From the NCBI RefSeq assembly GCF_011045215.1, contig NZ_CP049201.1: DNA of 64,000 nt; one strand, written 5' to 3'. The stretch comes from Escherichia coli (GTDB lineage: Bacteria > Pseudomonadota > Gammaproteobacteria > Enterobacterales > Enterobacteriaceae). The translations under genes and the position numbers were made by a program. Position 1 is the first letter of the stretch, and the number at the start of each line of letters is the position of its first letter. The notes under the pieces are model-generated. The model ran no database searches. It was not told the DNA's origin and worked only from the letters and a program-made list of their open reading frames with translations. Shown piece after piece: positions 2,770 through 29,832 of the stretch.

Positions 2770-3813
2770 ATGCGCTATCGCATTTTCCTTCTCTTTTTTT
2801 TCGCTTTGTTGCCGACGTCTTTGGTGTGGGCGGCACCAGCGCAACGGGCGTTTTCCGACTGGCAGGTCACCTGTAATAACCAAAACTTCTGCGTGGCGCG
2901 TAATACGGGCGATCATAATGGACTGGTGATGACCCTGAGCCGCAGCGCCGGGGCGCATACCGATGCCGTTTTACGTATTGAGCGCGGCGGGTTGAAGTCG
3001 CCGGATGCGTCTGAAGGGGAGATAGCGCCACGGCTGCTGTTAGATGGTGAGCCGTTGGCGTTAAGTGGTGACAAGTGGCGGATTTCACCATGGTTATTAG
3101 TAACCGATGATACGGCAACCATCACCGAGTTTTTGCAGATGATTCAGGAAGGGAAGGCGATCACCTTACGCGACGGCAATCAGACCATTTCTCTGAGTGG
3201 CTTAAAAGCGGCGTTGTTGTTTATTGATGCTCAGCAAAAGCGCGTTGGCAGTGAAACCGCCTGGATAAAGAAAGGGGACGAACCGCCGCTCAGCGTACCG
3301 CCAGCGCCTGCGTTGAAAGAGGTCGCGGTGGTTAACCCAACGCCGACGCCACTCTCACTCGAAGAACGTAACGATTTGCTGGATTATGGAAACTGGCGGA
3401 TGAATGGTCTGCGCTGCTCGCTTGATCCGTTACGTCGTGAGGTGAATGTCACTGCGCTGACTGATGATAAAGCGCTGATGATGATTAGCTGTGAGGCAGG
3501 GGCCTATAACACCATTGATTTGGCATGGATTGTGTCGCGTAAAAAGCCACTAGCCTCGCGCCCGGTTCGGTTGCGTTTGCCGTTCAACAACGGTCAGGAG
3601 ACGAATGAACTGGAACTGATGAACGCAACATTTGATGAGAAATCGCGTGAACTGGTGACCTTAGCGAAAGGGCGCGGATTAAGCGATTGTGGCATTCAGG
3701 CGCGCTGGCGCTTTGACGGTCAGCGTTTTCGCCTAGTGCGTTACGCCGCAGAACCGACCTGCGATAACTGGCATGGGCCAGATGCCTGGCCCACGTTGTG
3801 GATCACCCGTTAA
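2770..3813 (+). CDS. ypfG: Periplasmic protein YpfG (signal peptide, DUF-type)
   Basis: 347-aa ORF with N-terminal hydrophobic signal sequence; synteny between nudK and tktB. Confidence 0.7.
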   Translation: MRYRIFLLFFFALLPTSLVWAAPAQRAFSDWQVTCNNQNFCVARNTGDHNGLVMTLSRSAGAHTDAVLRIERGGLKSPDASEGEIAPRLLLDGEPLALSGDKWRISPWLLVTDDTATITEFLQMIQEGKAITLRDGNQTISLSGLKAALLFIDAQQKRVGSETAWIKKGDEPPLSVPPAPALKEVAVVNPTPTPLSLEERNDLLDYGNWRMNGLRCSLDPLRREVNVTALTDDKALMMISCEAGAYNTIDLAWIVSRKKPLASRPVRLRLPFNNGQETNELELMNATFDEKSRELVTLAKGRGLSDCGIQARWRFDGQRFRLVRYAAEPTCDNWHGPDAWPTLWITR

Positions 3814-3825
3814 ACAAAATAGCGG

Positions 3826-3905
3826 GACATGTAGGCCGGATAAGACGCTGTAGGCCGGATAAGACGCGTCAGCGTCGCATCCGGCAATCAGCGTCCGGCA
3901 ATCAG
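3826..3905. repeat. REP (repetitive extragenic palindromic) elements, at least two copies
   Basis: Repeated gtaggccggataagacgc units and gcatccggcaatcag units between convergent ypfG and tktB. Confidence 0.6.
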
Positions 3906-3921
3906 CATCTGCCGGTCAGTA

Positions 3922-5925
3922 TCAGGCATCTTTCACTCCCAGCACCTTATGCGCTTTTGCCACAATATTCTCGGCGGTAAAGCCAAAGAACGGGAACAGC
4001 TTATCCGCCGGAGCAGATTCCCCGTAACCCGTCATCCCGACAATTGCCCCTTTCAGACCAACATACTTGTACCAGTAATCGGCAATACCTGCTTCCACCG
4101 CCACGCGAGCCGCAACGTTAGAAGGCAACACCGACTCCCGATATTCCTCATCCTGGGCGTCGAAAATATCGGTCGAGGGCAGGGAAACTACGCGAACATT
4201 GCGACCTTCTCCCGCTAATTTCTCTGCCGCTTGCAGGGTGATTTCCATCTCTGAACCGGTGGCAATCAAAATAATATCTGGCTTACCGCCGCTGTCTTTC
4301 AGCACATAACCGCCACGAGCAATCTCTTTAACCTGATCCGGCGTACGTTCCACCTGGGCCAGATTCTGCCTGGAGAGAATCAGTGCCGTCGGTCCGTTGT
4401 GGCGCTCAACCGCCAGCTTCCAGCCCACCGCCGCTTCCACCTGATCGCACGGTCGCCAGGTGCTGAAATTTGGCGTTAAGCGCAGGCTGGCCAGTTGCTC
4501 AACAGCCTGGTGCGTCGGACCATCTTCGCCCAGGCCAATTGAGTCGTGGGTATAAACCATAATCTGCCGCGCTTTCATCAGTGCCGCCATCCGCGCGGCG
4601 TTACGGGCGTATTCAACAAACATCAGGAACGTCGCGGTATACGGCACAAAGCCACCGTGGTGCGCAATGCCATTGGCGATAGCGGTCATGCCAAATTCAC
4701 GCACCCCGTAGTGAATGTAGTTGCCCGCCGGATCTTCCTTCAGCGAAACAGAACCTTTCCAGATGGTCAGGTTGCTGGGAGCCAGATCCGCCGAACCGCC
4801 GAGCAGCTCCGGTAGTATCGGCCCGTAAGCGTTAAGCGTATTTTGCGAAGCCTTACGGGTAGCGATTTTCGCCGGATTCGCCTGCAACTCATTGATATAT
4901 TTCTGAGTCGTTTTCTCCCAGTCCTTCGGTAAACCACCGCTCATCCGACGGGTAAACTCTTCTGCCAGTTGCGGATGAGCCTTTTTATAGGCGGCAAACT
5001 TCTCATTCCAGCTCTGCTGCGCTTTTTCGCCTTTTTCGCGGGCATCCCAGGCGTGATAAATCTCTTTAGGGATCTCAAATGGCGGATGGTGCCAGCCCAG
5101 TTTTTGCCGTGCCAGCGCCACTTCTTCTTCCCCCAGCGGTGCGCCGTGCGCCTCTTCCTTACCTGCTTTATTCGGCGAACCAAAACCAATCACCGTACGG
5201 CAGATAATCAGCGACGGCTTATCTTTCACGCTTTGCGCTTCAAGGATCGCTTCCTTCACCGCCTGCGGATCGTGACCGTCGATTTCATGGATCACATGCC
5301 AGTGATAGGCTTCAAAACGTTTTGCCGTATCGTCGGTAAACCAGCCTTCGGTTTCTCCATCAATCGAAATACCGTTGTGATCGTAAAAACCAATCAGCTT
5401 GCCCAGTCCCAGCGTGCCCGCCAGCGAACAGACTTCGTGGGAAATACCTTCCATCAGGCAGCCGTCGCCCATAAACACATAGGTGAAGTGATCGACGATC
5501 TCATGGTCTGGCTGGTTAAACTGTGCAGCCAGCGTACGTTCCGCTATCGCCAGCCCGACGGCGTTCGCCAAACCTTGTCCAAGAGGACCGGTGGTGGTTT
5601 CAACTCCGGGCGTATAGCCGATTTCCGGGTGGCCAGGGGTTTTCGAATGCAGTTGACGAAAGTTCTTCAGCTCTTCCAGCGGCAGGTCGTAACCGGTCAG
5701 ATGCAGCAAACTGTAGAGCAGCATCGATGCGTGACCGTTGGAAAGAATAAAGCGGTCGCGATCATACCAGGTTGGGTCGGTAGGGTTATGTTTAAGAAAA
5801 TCGTTCCACAGCACTTCAGCAATATCAGCCATGCCCATCGGCGCGCCGGGATGACCAGAATTGGCTTTTTGTACCGCATCCATACTGAGTGCGCGAATCG
5901 CATTGGCAAGGTCTTTTCGGGACAT
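3922..5925 (-). CDS. tktB: Transketolase 2
   Basis: 667-aa product from ATG at 5925 ([14 protein letters not shown]...); TPP-binding transketolase motifs; co-located with talA as in the E. coli talA-tktB operon. Confidence 0.9.
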
Positions 5926-13404: not shown

Positions 13405-13510
13405 TCACCCTGTGTGACGTCGATTCGGGCGTCACGCTCTCTCATTTTTCATTTTACCTTCCGCGGAGGGTAGGGGGAGCTTTTACCTGAAATACGCCAC
13501 GGAGGCGGGT

Positions 13511-16060: not shown

Positions 16061-17237
16061 ATTGCAGACCGCGCTCTTTCAGGCGTTCGATACCCTGAAT
16101 CTGCAACGGGTAAAAACATTTAGCGTTCCACCGGTGACGCTTTGCGGTCCGGGCTCGGTGAGCAGTTGCGGACAGCAAGCGCAAACGCGTGGGCTGAAAC
16201 ATCTGTTCGTGATGGCAGACAGCTTTTTGCATCAGGCAGGGATGACCGCCGGGCTGACGCGTAGCCTGGCCGTTAAAGGTATCGCCATGACGCTCTGGCC
16301 ATGTCCGGTGGGCGAACCGTGCATTACCGACGTGTGTGCAGCCGTGGCGCAGTTGCGTGAGTCAGGTTGTGACGGGGTGATCGCATTTGGCGGCGGCTCG
16401 GTGCTGGATGCGGCGAAAGCCGTGGCGTTGCTGGTGACGAACCCGGATAGCACGCTGGCAGAGATGTCAGAAACCAGCGTTCTGCAACCGCGCTTGCCGC
16501 TGATTGCCATTCCAACTACCGCCGGAACCGGCTCTGAAACCACCAATGTAACGGTGATTATCGACGCGGTGAGCGGGCGCAAGCAGGTGTTAGCCCATGC
16601 CTCGCTGATGCCGGATGTGGCGATCCTCGACGCCGCATTGACCGAAGGTGTGCCGTCGCATGTCACGGCGATGACCGGCATTGATGCGTTAACCCATGCC
16701 ATTGAAGCATACAGCGCCCTGAACGCTACACCGTTTACCGACAGTCTGGCGATTGGTGCCATTGCGATGATTGGCAAATCGCTGCCGAAAGCGGTGGGCT
16801 ACGGTCACGACCTTGCCGCGCGCGAGAGCATGTTGCTGGCTTCATGTATGGCGGGAATGGCGTTTTCCAGTGCGGGTCTTGGGTTGTGCCACGCGATGGC
16901 GCATCAGCCGGGCGCGGCGCTGCATATTCCGCACGGTCTCGCGAACGCTATGTTGCTGCCAACGGTGATGGAGTTTAACCGGATGGTTTGTCGTGAACGC
17001 TTTAGTCAGATTGGTCGGGCACTGCGAACTAAAAAATCCGACGATCGTGACGCTATTAACGCGGTAAGTGAGCTGATTGCGGAAGTTGGGATTGGTAAAC
17101 GACTGGGCGATGTTGGCGCGACATCTGCGCATTACGGTGCATGGGCGCAGGCCGCGCAGGAAGATATTTGTCTGCGCAGCAACCCGCGTACCGCCAGCCT
17201 GGAGCAGATTGTCGGCCTGTACGCAGCGGCGCAATAA
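16050..17237 (+). CDS. eutG: Alcohol dehydrogenase EutG (iron-containing ADH family)
   Basis: 395-aa product from ATG at 16050 (MQNELQTALF...); Fe-ADH motifs; overlaps eutJ end. Confidence 0.85.
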   Translation: MQNELQTALFQAFDTLNLQRVKTFSVPPVTLCGPGSVSSCGQQAQTRGLKHLFVMADSFLHQAGMTAGLTRSLAVKGIAMTLWPCPVGEPCITDVCAAVAQLRESGCDGVIAFGGGSVLDAAKAVALLVTNPDSTLAEMSETSVLQPRLPLIAIPTTAGTGSETTNVTVIIDAVSGRKQVLAHASLMPDVAILDAALTEGVPSHVTAMTGIDALTHAIEAYSALNATPFTDSLAIGAIAMIGKSLPKAVGYGHDLAARESMLLASCMAGMAFSSAGLGLCHAMAHQPGAALHIPHGLANAMLLPTVMEFNRMVCRERFSQIGRALRTKKSDDRDAINAVSELIAEVGIGKRLGDVGATSAHYGAWAQAAQEDICLRSNPRTASLEQIVGLYAAAQ

Positions 17238-18679: not shown

Positions 18680-20079
18680 ACACTCGCCAGCTACTGAGCG
18701 TCGGTATCGATATCGGCACTACCACCACCCAGGTGATTTTCTCCCACCTGGAACTGGTTAACCGTGCGGCGGTGTCGCAGGTGCCGCGCTACGAATTCAT
18801 CAAACGCGAAATTAGCTGGCAAAGCCCGGTGTTCTTTACCCCTGTCGATAAACAGGGTGATTTAAAAGAAGCGGAACTGAAATCGCTGATTTTAGAGCAA
18901 TATCAGGCTGCGGGCATTGCACCGGAAAGCGTTGATTCTGGTGCCATCATCATCACCGGTGAAAGCGCGAAAACCCGCAATGCTCGCCCGGCGGTGATGG
19001 CGCTCTCTCAGTCGCTGGGCGATTTTGTCGTTGCCAGCGCCGGGCCGCACCTCGAATCCGTGATCGCCGGTCACGGAGCCGGGGCACAAACCCTTTCTGA
19101 ACAACGGCTGTGTCGGGTACTGAATATCGACATCGGCGGTGGCACCGCGAACTACGCCCTGTTCGATGCCGGAAAAATCAGCGGCACTGCCTGCCTCAAC
19201 GTCGGTGGTCGCCTGCTGGAAACCGACAGCCAGGGGCGCGTGGTTTACGCTCATAAACCGGGGCAGATGATTGTGGATGAGTGCTTCGGCGCAGGCACCG
19301 ACGCCCGTTCGCTGACCGGCGCGCAGCTGGTGCAGGTTACCCGGCGGATGGCAGAGCTGATTGTCGAAGTGATTGACGGAACGCTCTCGCCGCTCGCGCA
19401 GGCATTGATGCAAACCGGTTTGCTGCCCGCAGGTGTTACGCCCGAAATCATTACGCTTTCTGGCGGCGTGGGCGAATGTTATCGCCACCAGCCCGCCGAC
19501 CCGTTCTGTTTTGCCGATATTGGCCCGCTTCTGGCAACGGCGCTGCATGACCATCCGCGCCTGCGTGAGATGAACGTGCAGTTTCCGGCGCAAACCGTGC
19601 GTGCCACGGTGATTGGCGCGGGGGCACATACCCTTTCGCTCTCTGGCAGCACAATCTGGCTTGAGGGCGTACAACTGCCGCTGCGCAATTTGCCGGTGGC
19701 GATCCCGATTGATGAAACGGATCTGGTGAGTGCCTGGCAACAGGCGCTGATTCAACTGGATCTTGATCCCAAAACTGACGCGTACGTGCTGGCGCTTCCC
19801 GCCTCGCTGCCTGTGCGTTACGCCGCGGTACTGACGGTCATCAACGCGTTGGTCGATTTCGTCGCGCGTTTTCCGAATCCGCATCCCCTGCTGGTGGTGG
19901 CCGGGCAGGACTTTGGTAAAGCTCTGGGCATGTTGTTGCGCCCACAGCTACAACAACTCCCGTTGGCAGTCATTGACGAAGTGATTGTCCGCGCGGGGGA
20001 CTATATCGACATTGGTACGCCTCTTTTTGGCGGATCGGTTGTGCCGGTGACGGTGAAATCACTCGCATTTCCTTCCTGA
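18676..20079 (+). CDS. eutA: Ethanolamine ammonia-lyase reactivase EutA
   Basis: 467-aa ORF, 4-nt overlap with eutH; eut operon synteny; followed by the inserted element. Confidence 0.9.
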   Translation: MNTRQLLSVGIDIGTTTTQVIFSHLELVNRAAVSQVPRYEFIKREISWQSPVFFTPVDKQGDLKEAELKSLILEQYQAAGIAPESVDSGAIIITGESAKTRNARPAVMALSQSLGDFVVASAGPHLESVIAGHGAGAQTLSEQRLCRVLNIDIGGGTANYALFDAGKISGTACLNVGGRLLETDSQGRVVYAHKPGQMIVDECFGAGTDARSLTGAQLVQVTRRMAELIVEVIDGTLSPLAQALMQTGLLPAGVTPEIITLSGGVGECYRHQPADPFCFADIGPLLATALHDHPRLREMNVQFPAQTVRATVIGAGAHTLSLSGSTIWLEGVQLPLRNLPVAIPIDETDLVSAWQQALIQLDLDPKTDAYVLALPASLPVRYAAVLTVINALVDFVARFPNPHPLLVVAGQDFGKALGMLLRPQLQQLPLAVIDEVIVRAGDYIDIGTPLFGGSVVPVTVKSLAFPS

Positions 20080-20172: not shown

Positions 20173-20194
20173 AAAACCCGGCGCGGGGCCGGGT
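20173..20194 (-). terminator. Intrinsic terminator (minus-strand orientation)
   Basis: On minus strand reads ACCCGGCCCCGCGCCGGGTTTT: GC stem CCCGGC/GCCGGG followed by U-run, 7 nt after stop of the 20201-20761 gene; identical copy at 21822-21843. Confidence 0.6.
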
Positions 20195-20200
20195 GAACTA

Positions 20201-20761
20201 TCATTCAGGGAACAAGTTGATTTGAAGCAAACTGCCAATGTATTTACCAGTGCTTTTAATTTTTCGCTTTGATGGCTTACACGAATTCAGGTTGACACCA
20301 GCCTGGCTAGATATTGGCTTGTATTGCCGCTCCGCCAGTACGATCAGGTCTGCCGCGTCTTTTAGCTTTCCATCGTTAGCCAGTTCCAATGCTCGATCCG
20401 CCATTTGCCCGCATTGTTGAATCAGCTTAAGTTGCGATACCTCCAGTCGCAATTGCTGGATTCGTTCTACCACTTTCGCCCTAATGCGCTTAGTTTCACG
20501 CATTCCCATTCTTAATGCCTGGTTGCCAGTAAGTGAGTAAACCTCTTTTTCTTTCCTGAAGTTTGCGGCTTTACCGTCAGCTTGGACGCGCATTTTATGC
20601 GCTTCCAAGAATTCGCCCTCCAATTCATCCCTGATCTTCGCGTTGAATCTGTCGTTCTTGAGTTCATTTAACCCTTCCGCCTTGCGGATCTGGTTGATTA
20701 ACTCCAACAATTCATCACTGCGGATACGCCACTCGCTATCAACCTGTACCAAGTCAAACAT
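20201..20761 (-). CDS. Hypothetical phage protein (186 aa from ATG with GGGAG RBS; coiled-coil, possibly regulatory)
   Basis: ORF with good RBS upstream of internal ATG at 20761 (track start 20854 is TTG); no confidently recognised domain. Confidence 0.55.
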   Translation of the reverse strand: MFDLVQVDSEWRIRSDELLELINQIRKAEGLNELKNDRFNAKIRDELEGEFLEAHKMRVQADGKAANFRKEKEVYSLTGNQALRMGMRETKRIRAKVVERIQQLRLEVSQLKLIQQCGQMADRALELANDGKLKDAADLIVLAERQYKPISSQAGVNLNSCKPSKRKIKSTGKYIGSLLQINLFPE

Positions 20762-20924
20762 GTTGTTGCTCCCGTTTTGCTGCCATAGGGCAACGGCTCG
20801 CCAGCCTTTATCACCTCCTTTAGTTGTTGCGATTCTTAACTGAATGGTTATCAAAACGCTGCGTTAATATCATTGATATGTATCAAATTTGTTTTGTGAC
20901 GCGACAATGCCTTGTGAATATCAA

Positions 20925-20949
20925 TAAAAAACCCAGCGCTATGGCTGGG
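20925..20949 (-). terminator. Intrinsic terminator (minus-strand orientation)
   Basis: Minus strand CCCAGCcatagcGCTGGG followed by UUUUUU, 45 nt downstream of stop of 20995-21723 gene. Confidence 0.5.
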
Positions 20950-20994
20950 CTTCTCTTGATGGCTGGTTTTGTAGCTAATCGTTGGCTTTAAGGG

Positions 20995-21723
20995 TTAAGC
21001 AACAATATTAATCCCGCTCCTTGTCGCTGCCTCTTTGGCAATTTTCCCCTCGTCCTCCAGTTTAGCTAACGCCTTGTACATCCAGTGGCGGCCCGGTGCG
21101 CCATGCAGCTTGCCATCTTTGCCGATCTTACCGAACGCATGTAACGCCAAATCGTCGATAGTCCCCTTGTATCCGCCTTGCTCCTTAAGCCATTGCTCAA
21201 GCTGTTCTACTTTGAATTTTGCCGGACGTCCGCCAGCCGCTTTTTGTTGTTTAGCTGGTTCTTCTGCAATATCGCTTTTGTTGTTTAAGTCCGTCATGAC
21301 TGGTTCTCCTACAATAGCGTCGCCCTTGGTCTCGATTTGTTGATTAACTGGTTTGTCTACAATATCGATTTTGTTGTTTAGCTGGTTTTTCAACATATCA
21401 ATCTCAGCCTTTAGCGCCTCGTTTTCTCTGGCTAGTTCTTCGCAACGCTTGATAAATTTTTGTTCCATGCCGTCCGGGCTATCAACGTGCGCCGTACCCA
21501 TTACGATCTTCCCGTTGCTATCGAAGATGACAGCTTGCCAACCGACTGCGGCGAGCATTTTAAACACATCATCAGCGGTCTTGTTTGTTGTATCGCGACG
21601 CCCTTTAAACTTGTGGCTAGCAGCGCCTTTGCCTTTGAAGCCCATTGCCTCAGCGACATCTTGCCGCGTCATCTTGCGAGCGCGCTTGTTCATGCCTAAC
21701 TCAACCCAATCCATGTATTCCAT
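20995..21723 (-). CDS. Hypothetical phage protein with internal tandem peptide repeats (242 aa)
   Basis: ORF with GAGGT RBS; DNA and protein contain imperfect tandem repeats (LNNKIDIVDKPVNQQ / LNNKSDIAEEPAKQQ); basic N-terminal region possibly DNA-binding. Confidence 0.6.
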   Translation of the reverse strand: MEYMDWVELGMNKRARKMTRQDVAEAMGFKGKGAASHKFKGRRDTTNKTADDVFKMLAAVGWQAVIFDSNGKIVMGTAHVDSPDGMEQKFIKRCEELARENEALKAEIDMLKNQLNNKIDIVDKPVNQQIETKGDAIVGEPVMTDLNNKSDIAEEPAKQQKAAGGRPAKFKVEQLEQWLKEQGGYKGTIDDLALHAFGKIGKDGKLHGAPGRHWMYKALAKLEDEGKIAKEAATRSGINIVA

Positions 21724-21821
21724 ACATTACCTCATTTTGTCGCTAAACGTTTTGCTTTCTAATTTATCAACAAAAAAGCGGGTGATGGTAGCCGCTTTGA
21801 TGGGGAAGTTGACAGGGATCA

Positions 21822-21843
21822 AAAACCCGGCGCGGGGCCGGGT
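21822..21843 (-). terminator. Intrinsic terminator (minus-strand orientation), identical copy of 20173-20194
   Basis: Same 22-bp sequence aaaacccggcgcggggccgggt; 18 nt downstream of stop of AlpA-like gene 21861-22091. Confidence 0.6.
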
Positions 21844-21860
21844 ATTAGCAAGTTAGATGA

Positions 21861-22091
21861 TTACTGGGTATCGCTGTCAGAAAGTAGTCCAATTGATTTA
21901 AAGAATTTCATCACATCCTGATAGCGATACATGACGCCCCGCCCGGTTCCCAGCACATCAACAGGGTCGGGGAATGGAGTTCCGTTCTGTTCCCATTTCT
22001 TACGCCACGAATAAAACGTTCCCCTGCTAATTCCGCCCAGCATCCGGCAGATGGCAGGGCGGCTAAGAAGGATTACTTCATTTTTATCCAT
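21861..22091 (-). CDS. AlpA-family phage transcriptional regulator / excisionase-like HTH protein (76 aa)
   Basis: Motif LSRPAICRMLGGISRGTFYSWRKK...FPDPV typical of AlpA/Xis-type HTH; GGGAGA RBS. Confidence 0.6.
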   Translation of the reverse strand: MDKNEVILLSRPAICRMLGGISRGTFYSWRKKWEQNGTPFPDPVDVLGTGRGVMYRYQDVMKFFKSIGLLSDSDTQ

Positions 22092-22110
22092 TGTTTAATC
22101 TCCCGTGTGT

Positions 22111-22299
22111 TTATTTTGCGTAGATTAAGGCAAATGCTCTTTTGGCTTTGCTTAGTTCGTATTCGCGTTTTTCTATGATTGCCATCAGTTCTTGTGCGGT
22201 GGCTGGCACGCCCGCTCTTATCAGCGCAATCTTAGTATCCATAGCGCACACTCTTTCACGCACCATATCGAAGATAATTTCCGCTCTATCGTGTTTCAT
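22111..22299 (-). CDS. Small hypothetical protein (62 aa)
   Basis: ORF with strong GAGGTGA RBS 5 nt upstream of ATG; 19 bp upstream of AlpA-like gene, likely co-transcribed. Confidence 0.5.
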   Translation of the reverse strand: MKHDRAEIIFDMVRERVCAMDTKIALIRAGVPATAQELMAIIEKREYELSKAKRAFALIYAK

Positions 22300-22648
22300 G
22301 ATTTCACCTCATATTTGTTGCTAAACCTTGTAAACCCTTGTTTGACTACAAAATACACCTGGTTAAGCGACTGATAAAATGATTTAGGTCAATTTATTGG
22401 TTGATGATTTATGTCTGATTGGATTTGTCTACAAATGGCAGGTTAGTCAACAAATGATGAAACCAGGGAATGGCGGTTATAATGTCAGCGGGGATTGTGA
22501 GAAAGGCCCGGGTAGGTTGCTAACTGCCTGGGCCTTTATTTTTGGCGCGTGTACGTGAAATCTGGAAAATTTGCAGGGTAGTTGTTGAGGGATTTTTCGC
22601 GTAGGAGCGTGAAGGGTCCGCCAGTCATCGCCCTGACGTAGCGGTGAA

Positions 22649-23050
22649 TTACTTGCGAGGCTCACCCATCGGCCAGGCACCTTCATTGCGACGATAACCA
22701 ATCCGGTACTCTTCCGGCAGCGGCAAGCCCTGCTCACGATATGGACGCAGATCGAAGCCAAAAACAGGATCGTCGTCGTAGGCGAGGAATAGCCCGGCAG
22801 GCTCTGCCACGCGTTCGATAATCAGTTCCCCATCTTCAACGAAGAAGATCAGATTATCGCGAAAGTCCGTTACCTCACTGACGTGATAACATTCGGCATG
22901 TGCGTCCAGCCAGGCTTCTCGGTATTCCTGAATCTCGGCTTCTGACCATGTTGAAACAGGACGCTCCCAAATTCCCAGGCTGGATTTGCCCTGGCGGGAG
23001 AATAATTTTGCCTCTTTGCTCTGCTCTGGTTTTCTGTTTAAAAAGCTCAT
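22649..23050 (-). CDS. Hypothetical protein (133 aa)
   Basis: ORF with AAGGAGAA RBS; no recognised domain. Confidence 0.55.
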   Translation of the reverse strand: MSFLNRKPEQSKEAKLFSRQGKSSLGIWERPVSTWSEAEIQEYREAWLDAHAECYHVSEVTDFRDNLIFFVEDGELIIERVAEPAGLFLAYDDDPVFGFDLRPYREQGLPLPEEYRIGYRRNEGAWPMGEPRK

Positions 23051-23186
23051 TATTCTTCTCCTTTGAACGGATTGTTCTTGCTCTCTAATAACTTAGCGCG
23101 ACCCAGTAACGTCCGGGCAAGCGCCTCCGCCTTCCTTAGCCTAAGCCCTGCGTCTTCTGCGTCCAGATCTACATTCCTGATAGCCT

Positions 23187-23450
23187 CTACAGCCTGCTCC
23201 GCTGCGTCCGGGCGTGAATCCACTTAAATATGCCGATATGCTCACGAAAGTCTGGATGCTCATATTGCCAGCGGCAGATTGTTCTGAAGCTCGGCATGTC
23301 AGGCATGTTGCCAATCTCTCTGAGACTATGGCCTTCAGCTACCAGCAAGCAGATTTCTTCAGCGATAGCGACCCCATACTTAGCGCTTTTTCTGCTTAAA
23401 CTTGTGACATCAACAGGTAAGTTATTGATTTCTTTATCATCACCCTTCAT
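23187..23450 (-). CDS. Small HTH protein resembling the DNA-binding domain of phage terminase small subunits (87 aa)
   Basis: Motif AEGHSLREIGNMPDMPSFRTICRWQYEHPDFRE resembles TerS-type HTH; GGGGGTAA RBS; family assignment is from memory and tentative. Confidence 0.4.
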   Translation of the reverse strand: MKGDDKEINNLPVDVTSLSRKSAKYGVAIAEEICLLVAEGHSLREIGNMPDMPSFRTICRWQYEHPDFREHIGIFKWIHARTQRSRL

Positions 23451-23525
23451 AATTACCCCCGAATTGATAGCGAATTGATAGCGAATTACCCCGAATTACC
23501 CCCGAATTACCCCCGAATCACCATC
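23451..23525. repeat. Tandem array of about 6.5 copies of an 11-bp unit (AATTACCCC(C)G x4 and AATTGATAGCG x2)
   Basis: Directly visible: aattaccccc g aattgatagc g aattgatagc g aattacccc g aattaccccc g aattaccccc g aatcaccatc, exactly filling the gap between the 93-aa gene stop and the 87-aa gene start. Confidence 0.85.
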
Positions 23526-23527
23526 AT

Positions 23528-23809
23528 TTAACCCTCGCCTACGTCTGCGTCGATGCTTGCTAACTGGCTGTGTAGATCGCGTTCAATCATTTTTACCTTT
23601 TTCACAAAATCCCTTTCCTCGGCGGTGGCGGGCGCGCCCTGGGCTATGTTTTTCGTGAGGTCGTGGAAAGTGCCGAAAACATAAAGGGAGAACAGCCTTA
23701 ATTGTTGCCGCTTCATTGGCAAATCACTGTTGCTATGTTTGATCTCAGCGACGCCTTTCGAAATAACACGGGCCATCCCATGACAAATTCTTAACGTAAG
23801 CGCAGACAT
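23528..23809 (-). CDS. Hypothetical protein (93 aa)
   Basis: ORF with GGGGAG RBS; no recognised domain. Confidence 0.5.
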   Translation of the reverse strand: MSALTLRICHGMARVISKGVAEIKHSNSDLPMKRQQLRLFSLYVFGTFHDLTKNIAQGAPATAEERDFVKKVKMIERDLHSQLASIDADVGEG

Positions 23810-23930
23810 GATATTTACTCCCCGACTGGTATAATGAACGTGGTTTTAAACGTTGCTATTTGCTAACCATTTAATCTGTTAACTCAATTTCGCATTGTTG
23901 GCCCGGCACGAACACCGGGCTTTTCTTTAC

Positions 23931-24272
23931 CTATTCGAAATAGCTTCCAATATCCGGTGTCCGGGTATCAGTTTTCCGGGTCGGCTCGAAGTACGATTCC
24001 AGATCCGGCGTTTTCGGCCCACGCTGGGCGTTGGCGGCGGGTTGCTTTTCTTCTGGCTGTTCCGGCTGTTTACTACCAAATCGGCGCTCCAGTTGGTCCA
24101 TCAGCACTACCATCATTTCCTGGACCAGCTTTTCATCGGCTTTATCAAGGTTCTCCAATACCATCGCCATCCCTTTGCGGAATTTAAGCTCAGCGTCGTC
24201 CGGTTCCGGTGCTGATTCGTTTGCTTTAACTGCCAGGGCGATCCGGCGTTTTGCTTCATCCAAAAAATTCAT
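23931..24272 (-). CDS. Hypothetical acidic protein ending in repeated SYFE motif (113 aa)
   Basis: ORF with GGGGGAA RBS overlapping stop of upstream gene; C-terminus ...DLESYFEPTRKTDTRTPDIGSYFE. Confidence 0.5.
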   Translation of the reverse strand: MNFLDEAKRRIALAVKANESAPEPDDAELKFRKGMAMVLENLDKADEKLVQEMMVVLMDQLERRFGSKQPEQPEEKQPAANAQRGPKTPDLESYFEPTRKTDTRTPDIGSYFE

Positions 24273-24277
24273 TTTGT

Positions 24278-24721
24278 TTATTCCCCCATGTGGAAATAGT
24301 CATCTAAGCGGCGATTAAACTCGTCGCTGCCATCGAAATATTCACGGATACTTTTATTGACCAGATCATCACCGTCGAAATACTGGCGCGTGAAATCGTC
24401 CAATTCCCCATCGAAGTATTGACGTGTGAAATCGTCTAATTCCCCTTCAAAATATTGACGCGCATCAGGCGCTCTGTTTGGCGCTGTAGCAATCTCAGAT
24501 TGATTGCCCTGTAACTTATCGACGTTTGCTAAATACACGCCCAGTGAGCTGTTTGTTCCCATTACCGCAAGCATTTTCCGGCGATCTGCCATGTTCGGCG
24601 CGAGCGATGATAATTGAGCTTTAATTTTGTCCACTTCCTGATTAACAATACGGTCAATCAGTGGTTGATTCGTGCGAATAATTTCCTGTGCCAACTGGCG
24701 AATATATTCTTTGCGTGTCAT
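24278..24721 (-). CDS. Hypothetical protein with C-terminal tandem RQYF(D/E)GELDDFT repeats (147 aa)
   Basis: ORF with GGAGAT RBS; encoded by about 3.5 tandem 36-bp DNA repeats near 24330-24465. Confidence 0.55.
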   Translation of the reverse strand: MTRKEYIRQLAQEIIRTNQPLIDRIVNQEVDKIKAQLSSLAPNMADRRKMLAVMGTNSSLGVYLANVDKLQGNQSEIATAPNRAPDARQYFEGELDDFTRQYFDGELDDFTRQYFDGDDLVNKSIREYFDGSDEFNRRLDDYFHMGE

Positions 24722-24739
24722 TTCTTATCTCCGTTCATC

Positions 24740-25123
24740 TCATTTCTGTAAAAAACCCATACCGTGGCCCAGGCGATTTGAAATTTTCCCGGCAAGCATC
24801 CGGCGAATATGTTTTTCGTTGATGATGTCGTGAGTGACCGGATCTTCACCTTTCATACATTCCGGCATCTGGTCAAACAATACGGAAGCGCCTTCATCAA
24901 TAATCTCAGTTAAGACTGCTGGCAGCATATTAATGATGCGTTCTGCTTCGTCGTTCATTGCTTTATCGAACGCTTTTTTATCCATTGCTTCGGCGGATGG
25001 TTTGTAATTGTCGCCAGTCAGGTTAAGGTAAGTGTTGTTTGGGTGATACATGGCATTCACTCCTTTTACTTTGATTGTTGCGATTTCTTTGTTTTTGTTA
25101 ATTGTGGTGCCTTTGACTTTCAT
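24740..25123 (-). CDS. Hypothetical protein (127 aa)
   Basis: ATG overlaps stop of HNH gene (ATGA), suggesting translational coupling; no recognised domain. Confidence 0.5.
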   Translation of the reverse strand: MKVKGTTINKNKEIATIKVKGVNAMYHPNNTYLNLTGDNYKPSAEAMDKKAFDKAMNDEAERIINMLPAVLTEIIDEGASVLFDQMPECMKGEDPVTHDIINEKHIRRMLAGKISNRLGHGMGFLQK

Positions 25124-25539
25124 GCTGCTTCTTCCTTCAATAATTGTGGCAATTTGCCTGTTAGTTCGATTTCTTCATTAATAGATGCAAGTAACTGTCT
25201 CAGTTTGCGATGTAATAGCTGGTGACGCTCTCTCGGCATTTTTACCAGGTTGCTTAAGCGGTTATTCTGCGGATCGTAGTCCCGGTGATGGATATCATAT
25301 TTTCGCTCATCGTAAACACCGTAGCACCATAACCAGGCAGCCTTTTCTATTGTCATGCAGGTACGTTTTCCGTTGCTTAAACAAATGGTTATACTCAGGT
25401 GACCGCGATGTTTTTCGTTTAAGCTGCCTTTAATTACCTGGCCTGTGCTGCGGTTGTGAAATAAACCAGTTTCAGGGTCGTAGTGATATTTCTGTCGTAA
25501 TATATCAACTGATAACCGTAGTCTTGTAAGATTGTCCAT
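25120..25539 (-). CDS. HNH homing-type endonuclease (139 aa)
   Basis: Motif YDIHHRDYDPQNNRLSNLVKMPRERHQ (HH...N...N...H) typical of phage HNH nucleases; GAGGTAG RBS. Confidence 0.7.
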   Translation of the reverse strand: MDNLTRLRLSVDILRQKYHYDPETGLFHNRSTGQVIKGSLNEKHRGHLSITICLSNGKRTCMTIEKAAWLWCYGVYDERKYDIHHRDYDPQNNRLSNLVKMPRERHQLLHRKLRQLLASINEEIELTGKLPQLLKEEAA

Positions 25540-25571
25540 GATGTTCTACCTCAATGTGATTGCTGTGTTAA

Positions 25572-25757
25572 TTATCTTTCTTCTTGTGGCCTATTCAGCC
25601 AGGCCTCGATCTCGCTACGCCAGAATAATAAACGACAATTTCGCGGCGTAAATGGTTGGGGTATTGTCTTATCTTTTAATAGCCATCTTCGAATCGTTCT
25701 TGTTGATACCCCCGCTATTAATGCGAAAGCTCGCAGATCTATAACTTCATCTCTCAT
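25572..25757 (-). CDS. AlpA-like HTH regulator (61 aa from ATG with GAGGT RBS)
   Basis: Sequence LIAGVSTRTIRRWLLKDKTIPQPF...WRSEIEAWL matches AlpA/Xis-type HTH pattern; track ORF start 25862 is a TTG extension. Confidence 0.55.
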   Translation of the reverse strand: MRDEVIDLRAFALIAGVSTRTIRRWLLKDKTIPQPFTPRNCRLLFWRSEIEAWLNRPQEER

Positions 25758-26537
25758 GTTCTTACCTCGATTAAAAAGGACCGCCCCCAGGGAAAGAAGA
25801 AAGAGGAAAGAGGAAAGAGGAAAAACTTCCTGGAGGCGGGTAATTCGGATTCCTTGAATCAATATCCCATGTGATACTTAATATTATAAAGGGCGGCGGG
25901 CTATGTCGCTATTTTTGCCATAGTGTGACACCATTAATTTATTAACAAAAAGTGCTATTTATTAAATCTTTTTTCGGCAGGTGCAAGAAAAATAATTGCG
26001 ACACGGTAGGGTAGCGGGCGATAATAATCATGTAAGGAGTAGCCACCTTACGCCTCCAAATGTGATCGATAAAAATAATAGTCTCAATTCTTTCTCCCGC
26101 TTCTCGGCGGTTTTTTTGCCTGCAATCACACATCAAAAAAACACATCGAATTGATATGCCTTTAAAACGCAATATAACGCATTTTGACGGCCTTAATTTT
26201 TGCCTATCCACTCGGAAGCGTAAGCCTGTTTTGATTCGTCTGGCGTGGAATGGTGCGGCGGTAATATCAGATCTCAGCGTTCTGTGTGGTGGGATGGAAT
26301 AGCCTGGCAGGATCTGCGTGTGATTTCATTCATCCAACCTTGGATGAATGGTCCGATCTGGTCAGTAGTCCGGCACAAATAAAAAGCGCCTGCGGGCGTA
26401 GCAGACGCTTTGTGTACAGGCTTATCAGTACGGGATGTGCACGAATGATTATACCACCCTCAGAAAAACGTTTGCTTTTGCACTTAAACGGATAAGTGGT
26501 ATTTCTTGGTCTTCATTGGTTTTAGCTCACCATAGGC

Positions 26538-26765
26538 TCATTTAGGTGCGCCCCTGTCGATAATTCGGTACATGTTCTCGGTATATCTCCCGTTAATCAC
26601 CGTTCTGGTAACAACAATCACACCGTTTTCCTCCAGAAAGGCAATGGCCCGCTTCACTCCCTGGCGGCTTACACCGGATAGCTGCGCCAGCCTGTCAATG
26701 GAGATGTTGTATTTGTCCGGCTGGCTTGTCAGGATCTGGAATACCGCTCGTGCTGTTTTCGTCAT
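26538..26765 (-). CDS. Small winged-helix DNA-binding protein (75 aa), candidate regulator
   Basis: Sequence ISIDRLAQLSGVSRQGVKRAIAFLEENGVIV has HTH character; divergent from the plus-strand cassette; RBS weak. Confidence 0.45.
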   Translation of the reverse strand: MTKTARAVFQILTSQPDKYNISIDRLAQLSGVSRQGVKRAIAFLEENGVIVVTRTVINGRYTENMYRIIDRGAPK

Positions 26766-27037
26766 GGCAAAAACTCATTGAAATTGGATACCCTTAGAAC
26801 GCTCTCAAACGCTCCGTAATGCGATGAGAATTTTACCTAAGCAAGTGTAGCTCTTTATTAGTTTTATGATGCCGTAGGCCGATAGAAGGTGCGCTCTCTG
26901 AAGTTTCATTGTCTATCAGTGGTGGGTAATGCTGCCTTTACTATTGGCGTCAAGAAAATCACTGGTGTAGATTGGGCGAATAGTTTACTATTCAAACAAG
27001 GCACAATGGCCTTAGCGGATTGATGTCAGGAGATACC

Positions 27038-27385
27038 ATGTCAAAAATAGTTACTTTGTTTGCGACTAAGCGAGAAGGGAAATCCCTTTCTGTGCGCACT
27101 CGTAAGCCAAAAGCTATGACTGGCTTGCGTAAAACAAATCGTCTGACGCATCTTGACGCGTTAGCGTATCGACTAGGATACCAGTTGGTGCGCGGTAAAA
27201 GTGTCATGTTTCGCTACACTGCTACTCTCGATCACGAAGAAAACAAAGTGATGAATGCGGCCTCGCCTATGGCTGTACCACGAGTAAAAAAAATGACGTT
27301 CACACAAGCGTGTGATTTATCAAAAGATTTATTCGATTCACGAGAAGAACGCTTAAAGAGTGTAAGCTTTGATGGTCCAGAATGA
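27038..27385 (+). CDS. Basic 115-aa protein, candidate partner (antitoxin or regulator) of downstream YafO-like gene
   Basis: ATG at 27038 preceded by AGGAGA RBS; stop overlaps start of next gene by 14 nt; basic N-terminus and acidic C-terminus; no recognised family. Confidence 0.5.
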   Translation: MSKIVTLFATKREGKSLSVRTRKPKAMTGLRKTNRLTHLDALAYRLGYQLVRGKSVMFRYTATLDHEENKVMNAASPMAVPRVKKMTFTQACDLSKDLFDSREERLKSVSFDGPE

Positions 27386-27887
27386 ATTTATTGGTAAGGT
27401 CTACAGTGATAACAAGTTTAAAACAAACGATGAATTAAAGAGCTTTAAGGATTCGTTTATTTATCATTGGAGATATGGACATCATCCTGATTTTGGAAAG
27501 GATACTCTTTTCCATAAACCCCCGTGTGTATATCCTATCCATTTACGTAAAGTCCATGTAAATATTGGTCTTTATACCAATCAGTACGGCTATAGCGGGA
27601 CAGAACAATGCTGGGATGACTGGTCTACTGGTCGTTATGGTCCCGGTGGTTTCGAAAAAGTTACCCCTACATCTGATGCTTATCTTATATACGCTGTATG
27701 TAAAAATAGAAATGCTGGCGTGTTAGACTTCTGGTTTCCTCCCGCACACAAAAACGCTGAGTTCGAATCCTCTGTACAGTTTGTGGCTGAGATGGCTGAT
27801 AAGTTTTATGAGTCTATCAAGGCGGACCCGATGCCGCGCGATCAGAATCCTTGGCATACGGGGTATATAGTTAAAAAACCAGCCTGA
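27372..27887 (+). CDS. YafO-family toxin-like protein (171 aa)
   Basis: Motifs F-I-Y-H-W-R-Y-G...PDFGKDTLF, YPIHLRKVHVN and SDAYLIYAV line up with recalled YafO motifs (FISYKRDG...PDIFGRDALY, ERVAHIHLAN, DEAHLVYCQG); similarity judged from memory, not computed. Confidence 0.45.
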   Translation: MVQNEFIGKVYSDNKFKTNDELKSFKDSFIYHWRYGHHPDFGKDTLFHKPPCVYPIHLRKVHVNIGLYTNQYGYSGTEQCWDDWSTGRYGPGGFEKVTPTSDAYLIYAVCKNRNAGVLDFWFPPAHKNAEFESSVQFVAEMADKFYESIKADPMPRDQNPWHTGYIVKKPA

Positions 27888-28438
27888 TCCACGCAATACT
27901 GATTGTTTTTGGCCTTGTATGGTGTGGTCTGATTTGAGGCAAAATTATTTAATCCCTTAAAAAACTAACTTCAAAAGACTAAAACCAGGGGGATGGTCCC
28001 TCTCGCTCCGCTCCAGGTACCATCCCTGTCGGGATGGGTTTATTGTAGAGTTAAAATTAATTACTCACATCGTCACACCTTGCGAAAGTTTTGCTCAATT
28101 ATCATTCAAACATAGCACAAAAAATATTCGATTTAGTTAGTGTGCACTGACTTTTTTATCAATTTACTTTCATTCGAAAGTCATGGGTTAAATATTAATC
28201 ATCTGGCTGTGGCACGCATGGATTCACCGAGGGTATTTTGGACCATTTGGTCAAAATTCATAAGTACATGATTTCATGGTGATTTATTTTTCTGTATCTT
28301 GCTTTCATTCGAAAGTGGAAACGAAGAATTGGCAATTTATTGATTCAGATCATTGACATTGCATATTTGTGGCGGTTGTCACGGTTGTTTTTTGAGCGCT
28401 TCAACCGTCGATATTGAGTATAAACCCGGCCTTATAGT

Positions 28439-29644
28439 TCACGGTTCAAGTGGATTACCGTCACCAGCCAATATTGAATCAATAGCGTCGGCGTAATCCT
28501 GCATCATTGCTCGCCGTTGCTTCAGGTAGGCCGCCTGGTTATAAACGCCGCGCACACCTTTCGGGACGTGGGCCAATTGGATTTCGATCCAGTCTGGTGA
28601 GTATCTGCCAGACTCATTAAGCGCCGTTGAAAAGGTGGTCCGCCAGCCATGACCAGTGGCAATGGATTTATAGCCGATCCTCTCAAGCGCCTTCAGTATC
28701 GCGCTGGCTGAAAGTGGCTTATCCATGAATCGACCAGGGAAGACGAAAGCACTGTATCCGCTCCTTGTAAACTGGTCCTGTAATAGCTCCACCGCCTGCC
28801 GTGATAGCGGGACCACATGCGGGCGGCGGGCCTTCATGACTTCAGCGGGCAATGTGATTGTTGCGTCCTCCAGGTTTATCCATTCCCAACGGCACAAACG
28901 CAGTTCTGCGGTCCTTAATGCCGTTAATATAAGCAAACGTATTGCCGTCTGAATCTGGACGCTCCCGGCCCTCTCAAGGGCTTTGTAGAAGGCCGGAATT
29001 TCACTAATCGGTATCCACGCGTTGTGACCAGGTCGGCGGGCCTTCAGTGCCGTATCAAGATCTGCAACCGGATTCCTCGTTACCAGTTCGGTGATAACGG
29101 CAAACTTGAAGATCTCACCGATGCGCTGGCGTAGCTTGCGGGCCTGCTCCGGTGCGGTACGTTCTTTCTTCTGGAGTAATGCCAGCACGTCACGGGCGGT
29201 TATATCGACAATCGACCGCTTGCCAAGTACCGGATAGACGTCTTTTTCTAGGGCCGATCTGACCTGTTTTGCATAGGATTCCGACCACCCTCCAACCCTA
29301 GTAGCAAACCAGTCTTCCGCCACCTTCTTAAATCCTGCCGCCATGTTGAGCGCATCAATGGCTTTTTCCTTGCGGGCTTGTTCCACTGGGTTAATTCCAT
29401 TGGCAATAAGGGATCTGCTCTCCGTGGCGCGCCTGCGTGCTTCTTTGAGTGTGATTAGCGGGTAAACACCAATAGCCTGCAAAAACTCTCGTTTATTCAA
29501 CCAATACCTGAATCGCCAGTATTTCGAACCGTTGGGATGCACCAGCAAAAACAGCCCCGGCGTCAGTGAATCGGTGAGTTTATAGGGCTTGTCCTGCGGC
29601 TGTGCGGCGTCTATGGCCTTTGCTGTGAGTGGTGTCTTGCTCAA
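28439..29644 (-). CDS. intZ: Tyrosine-type site-specific integrase (prophage integrase)
   Basis: 401-aa ORF with phage integrase features (N-terminal arm-binding domain, C-terminal catalytic region with ...HGWRTT...); sits at the element end beside eutB as intZ does in E. coli K-12; start appears to be TTG. Confidence 0.8.
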   Translation of the reverse strand: MSKTPLTAKAIDAAQPQDKPYKLTDSLTPGLFLLVHPNGSKYWRFRYWLNKREFLQAIGVYPLITLKEARRRATESRSLIANGINPVEQARKEKAIDALNMAAGFKKVAEDWFATRVGGWSESYAKQVRSALEKDVYPVLGKRSIVDITARDVLALLQKKERTAPEQARKLRQRIGEIFKFAVITELVTRNPVADLDTALKARRPGHNAWIPISEIPAFYKALERAGSVQIQTAIRLLILTALRTAELRLCRWEWINLEDATITLPAEVMKARRPHVVPLSRQAVELLQDQFTRSGYSAFVFPGRFMDKPLSASAILKALERIGYKSIATGHGWRTTFSTALNESGRYSPDWIEIQLAHVPKGVRGVYNQAAYLKQRRAMMQDYADAIDSILAGDGNPLEP

Positions 29645-29832
29645 AACCGGATACCTTGATTTAACGACTGGATAACCCCGATCATGTATCCGGCGCGTTC
29701 GGTTGCGTTCGGCAGGATAAGTAACGGGCGTATTAAGTGGAACACCTTACAGGACAAGGGCTAACGATGAAATAGAATTGTTTGCAGGCTGTGAGAAATG
29801 TTAATCGTCACTTCTTCCTGAGGGAACGACTT

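Follow-up and report, generated by a model that had tools for sequence, protein, structure and literature searches.

The endoribonuclease toxin YafO belongs to the BECR superfamily, and its gene follows that of its antitoxin (PMC11980606; PMC8546651); its dependence on the ribosome is disputed and its mechanism is still debated (PMC8546651). Here we analyse a two-gene cassette, formed by the overlapping genes A and B, within a 64,000-nucleotide (nt) stretch of an Escherichia coli chromosome (contig NZ_CP049201.1 of assembly GCF_011045215.1; hereafter the window). The described system closest to this cassette is E. coli YafN–YafO (toxin Q47157), which resembles A–B in toxin fold, in core motifs, in its composition of two genes and in the order of antitoxin then toxin. 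By contrast, E. coli YafO has 132 amino acids (aa) whereas gene B encodes 171, YafN is a Phd/YefM-type antitoxin whereas gene A has no Phd/YefM similarity, yafN and yafO are 2 nt apart whereas A and B overlap by 14 nt, and yafNO belongs to the dinB operon whereas A–B is carried on mobile elements. In our best reading, B is filed as a long-form toxin of the YafO branch paired with a new antitoxin family, and the A–B cassette probably has the architecture of a bicistronic, translationally coupled type II toxin–antitoxin (TA) system.

HigB2, HigB1 and other mRNA interferases of the RelE/ParE superfamily share only 5–15% sequence identity with B, and HigBA operons encode the toxin first, the reverse of the order in A–B (PMC11980606). 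A sequence-profile search of PDB chains returned no solved structure matching B, and neither this search nor a fold search found a YafO relative among solved structures. Supplementary file 6 of Rousset et al. 2022 lists a system 123, 'YafO_toxin', in which a 196-aa unknown protein is paired with a 126-aa short YafO in 24 occurrences (PMC9122126). System 123 resembles A–B in that, on a phage-related E. coli element, a YafO-family toxin follows a protein that is not YafN and has no known function; it differs in that its toxin is the short form and in that the C-terminal module of A, described below, is missing from its partner. The A–B family is therefore not alone in pairing a YafO toxin with a non-YafN partner on phage-related elements. 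The main text of Rousset et al. does not mention YafO, and no defence test of system 123 was found there (PMC9122126). Literature on YafO-like toxins in defence, satellites or NetFlax yielded no description of the A–B pair.

Genes A and B are real and not chance open reading frames (ORFs), because B matches PHROG 1651 (unknown function; E = 1e-42), both genes have homologues, and the ratios of non-synonymous to synonymous substitution rates (dN/dS) are low: about 0.04 for B, 0.08 for the C-terminal module of A and about 0.42 for the N-terminal half of A, values that are approximate because dS is near saturation. Both genes are under purifying selection, which is strong in gene B. In related E. 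coli genomes, the RefSeq annotation pipeline PGAP predicts the same two coding sequences with the same lengths, naming A 'hypothetical protein' (WP_000036755.1) and B 'type II toxin-antitoxin system YafO family toxin'. An earlier sequence-only reading of the window had proposed that the 14-nt overlap couples translation of the two genes. The analysis is consistent with this proposal: the overlap, together with the lack of a clear Shine–Dalgarno box in the sequence before gene B, suggests translational coupling.

The same reading had described B as YafO-like and about 40 aa longer than its E. coli counterpart. The measured difference from E. coli K-12 YafO is 39 aa, and the additional residues are distributed over the N-terminus, a central insertion (approximately aa 64–100, with the conserved, family-specific C80/W81/W84) and a C-terminal tail. 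In a direct search B matches Pfam YafO_toxin only marginally, and its likeness to YafO is borne out by profile–profile comparison, invariant residues and structure. When 1.84 billion representative proteins were searched with a profile, 73 B relatives were recovered at E ≤ 1e-3, mostly 163–200 aa in length, with some of 130–150 aa at the weak end of the list; among 36 members of the family, 5 match Pfam YafO_toxin at E ≤ 1e-3 and 16 at E ≤ 0.1. Comparison by hhalign of the 36-sequence B profile with E. coli K-12 YafO gives 91.6% probability and an E value of 8e-7 over 113 columns. An alignment of 68 sequences, E. coli YafO among them, has F29, G42, H62 and H126 as invariant positions and D44, P50, W81, S101 and Y107 as nearly invariant ones; D44, S101, Y107 and R113 are invariant or nearly so across 36–68 diverse sequences. 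The AlphaFold2 model of B, built on the 68-sequence alignment (predicted local distance difference test score (pLDDT) 95.1, predicted template modelling score 0.90), displays the RelE-type α/β fold that defines the RelE/ParE, BECR-fold superfamily. When this model was searched against AFDB50 with Foldseek, B's own clade ranked first, followed by dozens of models of canonical 131–145-aa YafO proteins (E about 1e-6 to 5e-5, probability 1.00, target-normalised template modelling score 0.7–0.78), and these canonical proteins are the closest neighbours of B in sequence and structure beyond its own clade. Because profile comparison, shared invariant residues and fold agree, we assign B to the YafO branch; judged by sequence profile and modelled fold, it is a long-form member of that branch within the BECR-fold superfamily.

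Even with the threshold relaxed to E ≤ 10, gene A matches no Pfam family; it also matches none in NCBIfam, PADLOC or PHROG, and a sequence search returned no relative among solved structures. Variants of A likewise gave nothing informative in these collections. Homologues of A form only 8 clusters, all unnamed. The protein is bipartite. Residues 1–60 have an isoelectric point (pI) of 11.6, with 15 lysines and arginines against 2 aspartates and glutamates, and the C-terminal part is mildly acidic. We modelled A and B as a single AlphaFold2 monomer, fused through a (GGGGS)6 linker and built on a paired alignment. In this fused model, residues 78–115 of A, approximately, reach a pLDDT of 96–97 and form helices at 88–100 and 102–107 and β-bridges at F111 and E115. 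The rest of A has a pLDDT below 50 for aa 1–35 and of 55–72 for aa 37–60, and the fold of B is unchanged. The model suggests that the C-terminal module of A is a toxin-binding tail that folds upon B.

That A bears no resemblance to YafN, as the sequence-only reading had claimed, held up at each level of comparison. A has no Pfam match, none of 16 diverse partners matches Phd/YefM (PF02604), and the score of the C-terminal module against a YafN-tail profile lies within the range of column-shuffled controls, 162 of 200 of which equal or exceed it. An origin of the module from the YafN tail was considered and rejected, as hhalign gave no signal against either E. coli YafN or a 39-sequence profile of YafN tails. 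By eye the tails of A and YafN look alike, ending in FDGPE and FNDFKE, respectively, with a PS..R..I[ST] pattern, aromatic and acidic residues and a terminal glutamate. The same reading had looked to a Pfam search to place both proteins, and at this level the support is weaker: B gave a marginal YafO_toxin match and A no match to any family.

The pairing of A with B extends across the family. We compared 54 loci encoding B relatives, drawn from 44 viral contigs plus E. coli, Serratia and Yersinia genomes, and every one of the 54 has an upstream ORF that overlaps the start of B by 11 or 14 nt. The encoded partners span 108–183 aa, with N-terminal parts that bear no relation to one another from clade to clade. 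The only part common to all 54 is the C-terminal module of about 38 aa, which has the consensus [VI]P+V+KMS..EA..LS..L..S.EER.....[FY]D..E-COOH with S95, D112 and the terminal E115 invariant. A small ORF also lies directly upstream in all seven distant B relatives examined, encoding 55–71 aa where complete, and for three of these relatives (31–36% identity to B) the partners of 55–71 aa consist of a basic N-terminus followed by the module. A hidden Markov model (HMM) of the module detects three of the seven distant partners, with none of 300 shuffles of each reaching the score. The same HMM did not rise above shuffled controls on four partners that are more distant or truncated (loci L057, L058, L059 and L069), nor on E. 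coli YafN or the partner in Rousset system 123.

Partners from two of these loci have related N-termini: the N-terminal residues, about 48 in number, of the partners in L017 (2772–3323) and L043 (5552–6011) are 42% identical (E = 3e-7), despite C-terminal modules and toxins that belong to different clades. This pattern suggests, from sequence comparison, that N-terminal domains have been shuffled between cassettes of different clades. A third conserved gene 3′ of the pair was considered and rejected, as the small, convergent downstream genes are mutually unrelated. Since no relationship links the downstream genes of different contexts, conservation extends to A and B alone.

Members of the family reside almost exclusively in accessory slots, on prophages or on small integrative islands. 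The cassette occurs in 56 of 5426 complete E. coli genomes, always on the chromosome, and in the E. coli genomes examined it is integrase-proximal in IntZ islands. Cassette-bearing IntZ islands occupy two att sites, located between eutA and eutB (the window, L065 and L066) or inside yghO; in L001 (NZ_CM143725.1), an island with a 99%-identical cassette cuts yghO into two pseudogene halves. At IntZ islands in the eut site, alternative cargo is either yffL (K-12 and AR_452) or a 257–260-aa protein, and because these alternate with the A–B cassette, the integrase-proximal slot is variable. In podovirus-type prophages of about 40 kb, the pair lies between an antirepressor (Ant/Bro-N) gene and genes for the tailspike or an internal virion protein. 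A B relative with 23% identity is found in a P2-like phage between the portal gene and ogr/gpA, and the gpA–gpQ region of P2 is a hotspot that holds old and tin (PMC9122126).

These observations are consistent with the following model. The cassette is cargo that an IntZ/CPZ-55-type island, lodged between eutA and eutB, carries at the end next to its integrase. The conserved C-terminal residues of A (about 38, comprising two short helices and an F-D-x-x-E tail) are predicted to fold onto B and neutralise it, and B, once free, would most likely arrest translation by mRNA cleavage, an endoribonuclease activity that we infer from its family. The basic, largely disordered and exchangeable N-terminal half of A may have a regulatory role and set the timing of toxin release, whether by nucleic-acid binding for autoregulation, by proteolytic lability or by conferring trigger specificity. 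The module would benefit the mobile element that carries it, either by stabilising the element or by killing or arresting the host upon infection with a competing phage. Given the near-confinement of the family to accessory slots, its role is most likely either stabilisation or else abortive infection or superinfection exclusion; within the TA reading, we give roughly even weight to defence and to pure addiction.

Several results weigh against the TA reading or its defence component. The match of B to Pfam YafO_toxin (PF13957) has an E value of 0.0093 and 16.5 bits over model positions 13–100 of 101, which is marginal, and no NCBIfam model matches B. Contact between A and B is predicted from the pLDDT of a linker-fused monomer model. 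No Pfam domain, whether a DNA-binding one (RHH, HTH, AbrB or Phd) or any other, is recognised in A and 15 further partners, for which the top match is RHH_8 in a single member at E = 0.05. The region upstream of A has neither a sigma-70 consensus site nor a clear operator palindrome; its sole inverted repeat is weak, with 9-nt arms at 26940–26948 and 26976–26984. With no DNA-binding domain in A and no convincing operator or promoter, classical autoregulation is unsupported. As to defence, neither A nor B matches any family of PADLOC-DB v2.0.0 at E ≤ 1. The alternative cargos of the IntZ slot have no PADLOC match either, so that the slot cannot be called a defence hotspot. The B relative in the P2 hotspot has only the 23% identity given above, and its partner lacks the module.

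Type II TA architecture also fits a module that serves addiction alone, stabilising an island or prophage against loss or excision by post-segregational killing with no anti-phage role. Such a function is also in keeping with the constant presence of the cassette on integrative elements, with the lack of any PADLOC match and with alternative slot cargos that are not known defence genes. We consider pure addiction possible but somewhat unlikely, because plasmid-style killing after loss profits chromosomally integrated elements little, the pair occupies moron or accessory slots typical of exclusion genes (including the P2 gpA–gpQ hotspot for a distant relative), and the hypervariable, shuffled N-terminal half of A is left unexplained. 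A more specific anti-phage proposal, which we regard as rather doubtful, is that A acts as a modular sensor-neutraliser whose tail silences the long-YafO RNase and whose swappable N-terminus reads a phage cue or a phage-triggered event.

The strict co-occurrence of A and B, the predicted docking of A on B and the resemblance of the modular, variable N-termini to specificity or targeting domains could instead point to a two-component effector in which B strictly requires A as a partner or activator and the N-terminus of A targets the complex. PARIS, which is found in such hotspots, provides a non-TA precedent with two genes, either of which can be deleted without toxicity (PMC9122126). An activating role for A is nonetheless improbable: a small, basic, overlapping upstream partner with a C-terminal tail that contacts the toxin is the classical layout of a type II antitoxin in the RelE superfamily (family knowledge; PMC11980606), and distant partners of 55–71 aa, which contain little beyond the module, suit a neutraliser better than an effector subunit. 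It is more improbable still that B is a catalytically inert or repurposed RelE-fold protein, for instance an anti-defence factor or a regulator that binds ribosomes or RNA, and that the pair forms no toxin system at all. A marginal Pfam match, some 39 residues beyond the length of YafO and the debated mechanism of YafO itself (PMC8546651) leave room for such a protein, but the histidines shared with YafO and residues D44, S101, Y107 and R113 are invariant or nearly so in 36–68 sequences, purifying selection on B is strong, and a tightly coupled partner is kept throughout the family.

Features of the cassette and its surroundings are collected in Table 1. In the window, the cassette lies on an island of about 9.6 kb between eutA (which ends at 20079) and eutB (which starts at 29782), at the position occupied in K-12 by the CPZ-55 cryptic prophage. 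The integrase DNA of the island is 95% identical to K-12 intZ. All remaining ORFs of the island (20201–26765), as well as the integrase, are on the − strand, and they include genes for an antirepressor-like protein, an HNH endonuclease, an AlpA-type excisionase or regulator and a 75-aa winged-HTH protein. The A–B cassette is therefore the sole + strand unit of the island, and its coordinates and strands confirm the earlier description of two overlapping genes that run against the rest of the element next to the integrase 3′ end. A non-coding gap of 552 nt separates the end of gene B from the integrase 3′ end. The G+C content of the cassette is 41.9%, compared with 53–57% in the flanking eut genes.

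Table 1. Coordinates (window numbering) of the A–B cassette, its parts and adjacent features
Feature	Coordinates	Strand	Description and basis
Upstream non-coding region travelling with the cassette	26861–27037	+	Homology boundary among E. coli islands; presumed promoter/operator
Shine–Dalgarno-like AGGAG	27028–27032	+	Read from sequence; 5 nt before the ATG of gene A
Gene A	27038–27385	+	ORF with ATG start; 115 aa, pI 10.2, basic; proposed antitoxin
N-terminal half of A (aa 1–77)	27038–27268	+	Very basic, fast-evolving, mostly predicted to be disordered
C-terminal module of A (aa 78–115), PRVKKMTFTQACDLSKDLFDSREERLKSVSFDGPE	27269–27382	+	Conservation and fused AlphaFold2 model; proposed toxin-binding/neutralising segment
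A stop/B start overlap	27372–27385	+	Sequence; 14 nt, ATGGTCCAGAATGA
Gene B	27372–27887	+	ORF with ATG start; 171 aa; proposed endoribonuclease toxin, long-form YafO branch, RelE/ParE (BECR fold)
Hairpins 3′ of B, probable operon terminator	27990–28037	+	Consensus pattern matches only
IntZ-type tyrosine integrase	28439–29644	−	ORF; right end of the island; context, outside the module

Among E. coli islands whose interiors differ, homology starts at window position 26858–26861, about 177 nt 5′ of A. As homology covers this end of the islands and their interiors diverge, the integrase end, the cassette and the region 5′ of it move together as a block. Downstream of B lie a 12-nt inverted repeat (27990–28026) and a terminator-like stem (28020–28037) that precedes a T-rich tract. 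The gap between B and the integrase also contains two copies of a partly palindromic motif, TT[A/G]CTTTCATTCGAAAGT, at 28164–28181 and 28299–28316, 135 nt apart; the motif could be a protein-binding site. An Rfam search of the island and of the gap between B and the integrase returned no credible RNA element.

Further features were observed in this island family. Some related IntZ islands of about 12 kb encode a 726–729-aa protein that matches tape-measure PHROG 1538 (E = 1e-103 to 1e-106), at 13446–15635 in L001 and 1097–3277 in L065, and L001 also encodes a small-terminase-like protein at 16347–16748 (PHROG 1482, E = 1e-11). Such content is unusual on islands this small and suggests that the IntZ islands with a tape-measure gene represent a type of phage satellite not yet described; no such gene is present on the window's island. 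Elsewhere in the window's island, an intergenic segment at 23451–23519 contains three copies of AATTACCCCCGAATT within 70 nt, two of them exact and one 93% identical, which look like iterons or operator sites. Imperfect 45-nt direct repeats (100, 87 and 60% identity) occur at 21243–21414 within the ORF at 20995–21723 (− strand), which encodes 242 aa and has no PHROG match. A 147-aa ORF at 24278–24721 (− strand) contains a tandem peptide repeat, ...DDFTRQYFDGEL..., two to three times, and has no PHROG or PADLOC match. The 22-nt, G+C-rich sequence AAAACCCGGCGCGGGGCCGGGT is found exactly at 20173–20194 and 21822–21843, with a third copy, 68% identical, at 20928–20949, and these repeats look like terminator or REP-type hairpins. 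SocA_Panacea is a TA-associated antitoxin domain. In L008 (Serratia fonticola), a gene pair at 3335–4227 that includes a protein with this domain lies about 1.5 kb 5′ of the A–B cassette, so that two TA-like modules are clustered there; the pair adjoins two AlpA-like genes, and the Panacea protein has no PADLOC match.

A–B is one among many uncharacterised TA-like pairs on mobile elements. What is new is the partner family, its architecture of a tail plus a swappable head and its consistent location in accessory positions of mobile elements. Since the toxin is already named by automated annotation, novelty is limited to these three aspects, and surprise to the specialist is moderate; the pair would become clearly interesting only if the variable N-terminal domain sets phage-trigger specificity. 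If confirmed, A would found a new antitoxin family, whose members so far bear no annotation beyond 'hypothetical protein' or a PHROG of unknown function. B would likewise establish a long-form, structurally distinct subfamily of YafO, a toxin for which both mechanism and structure are little understood so far. On prophages and small islands, the cassette would also offer a compact example of how one conserved neutralising tail can be joined to interchangeable N-terminal domains. If the pair protects against phage, a YafO-type RNase module would join the known defence systems, and if A is indeed a sensor-neutraliser, prophages and satellites would carry an abortive-infection family whose trigger specificity is changed by swapping the N-terminus.

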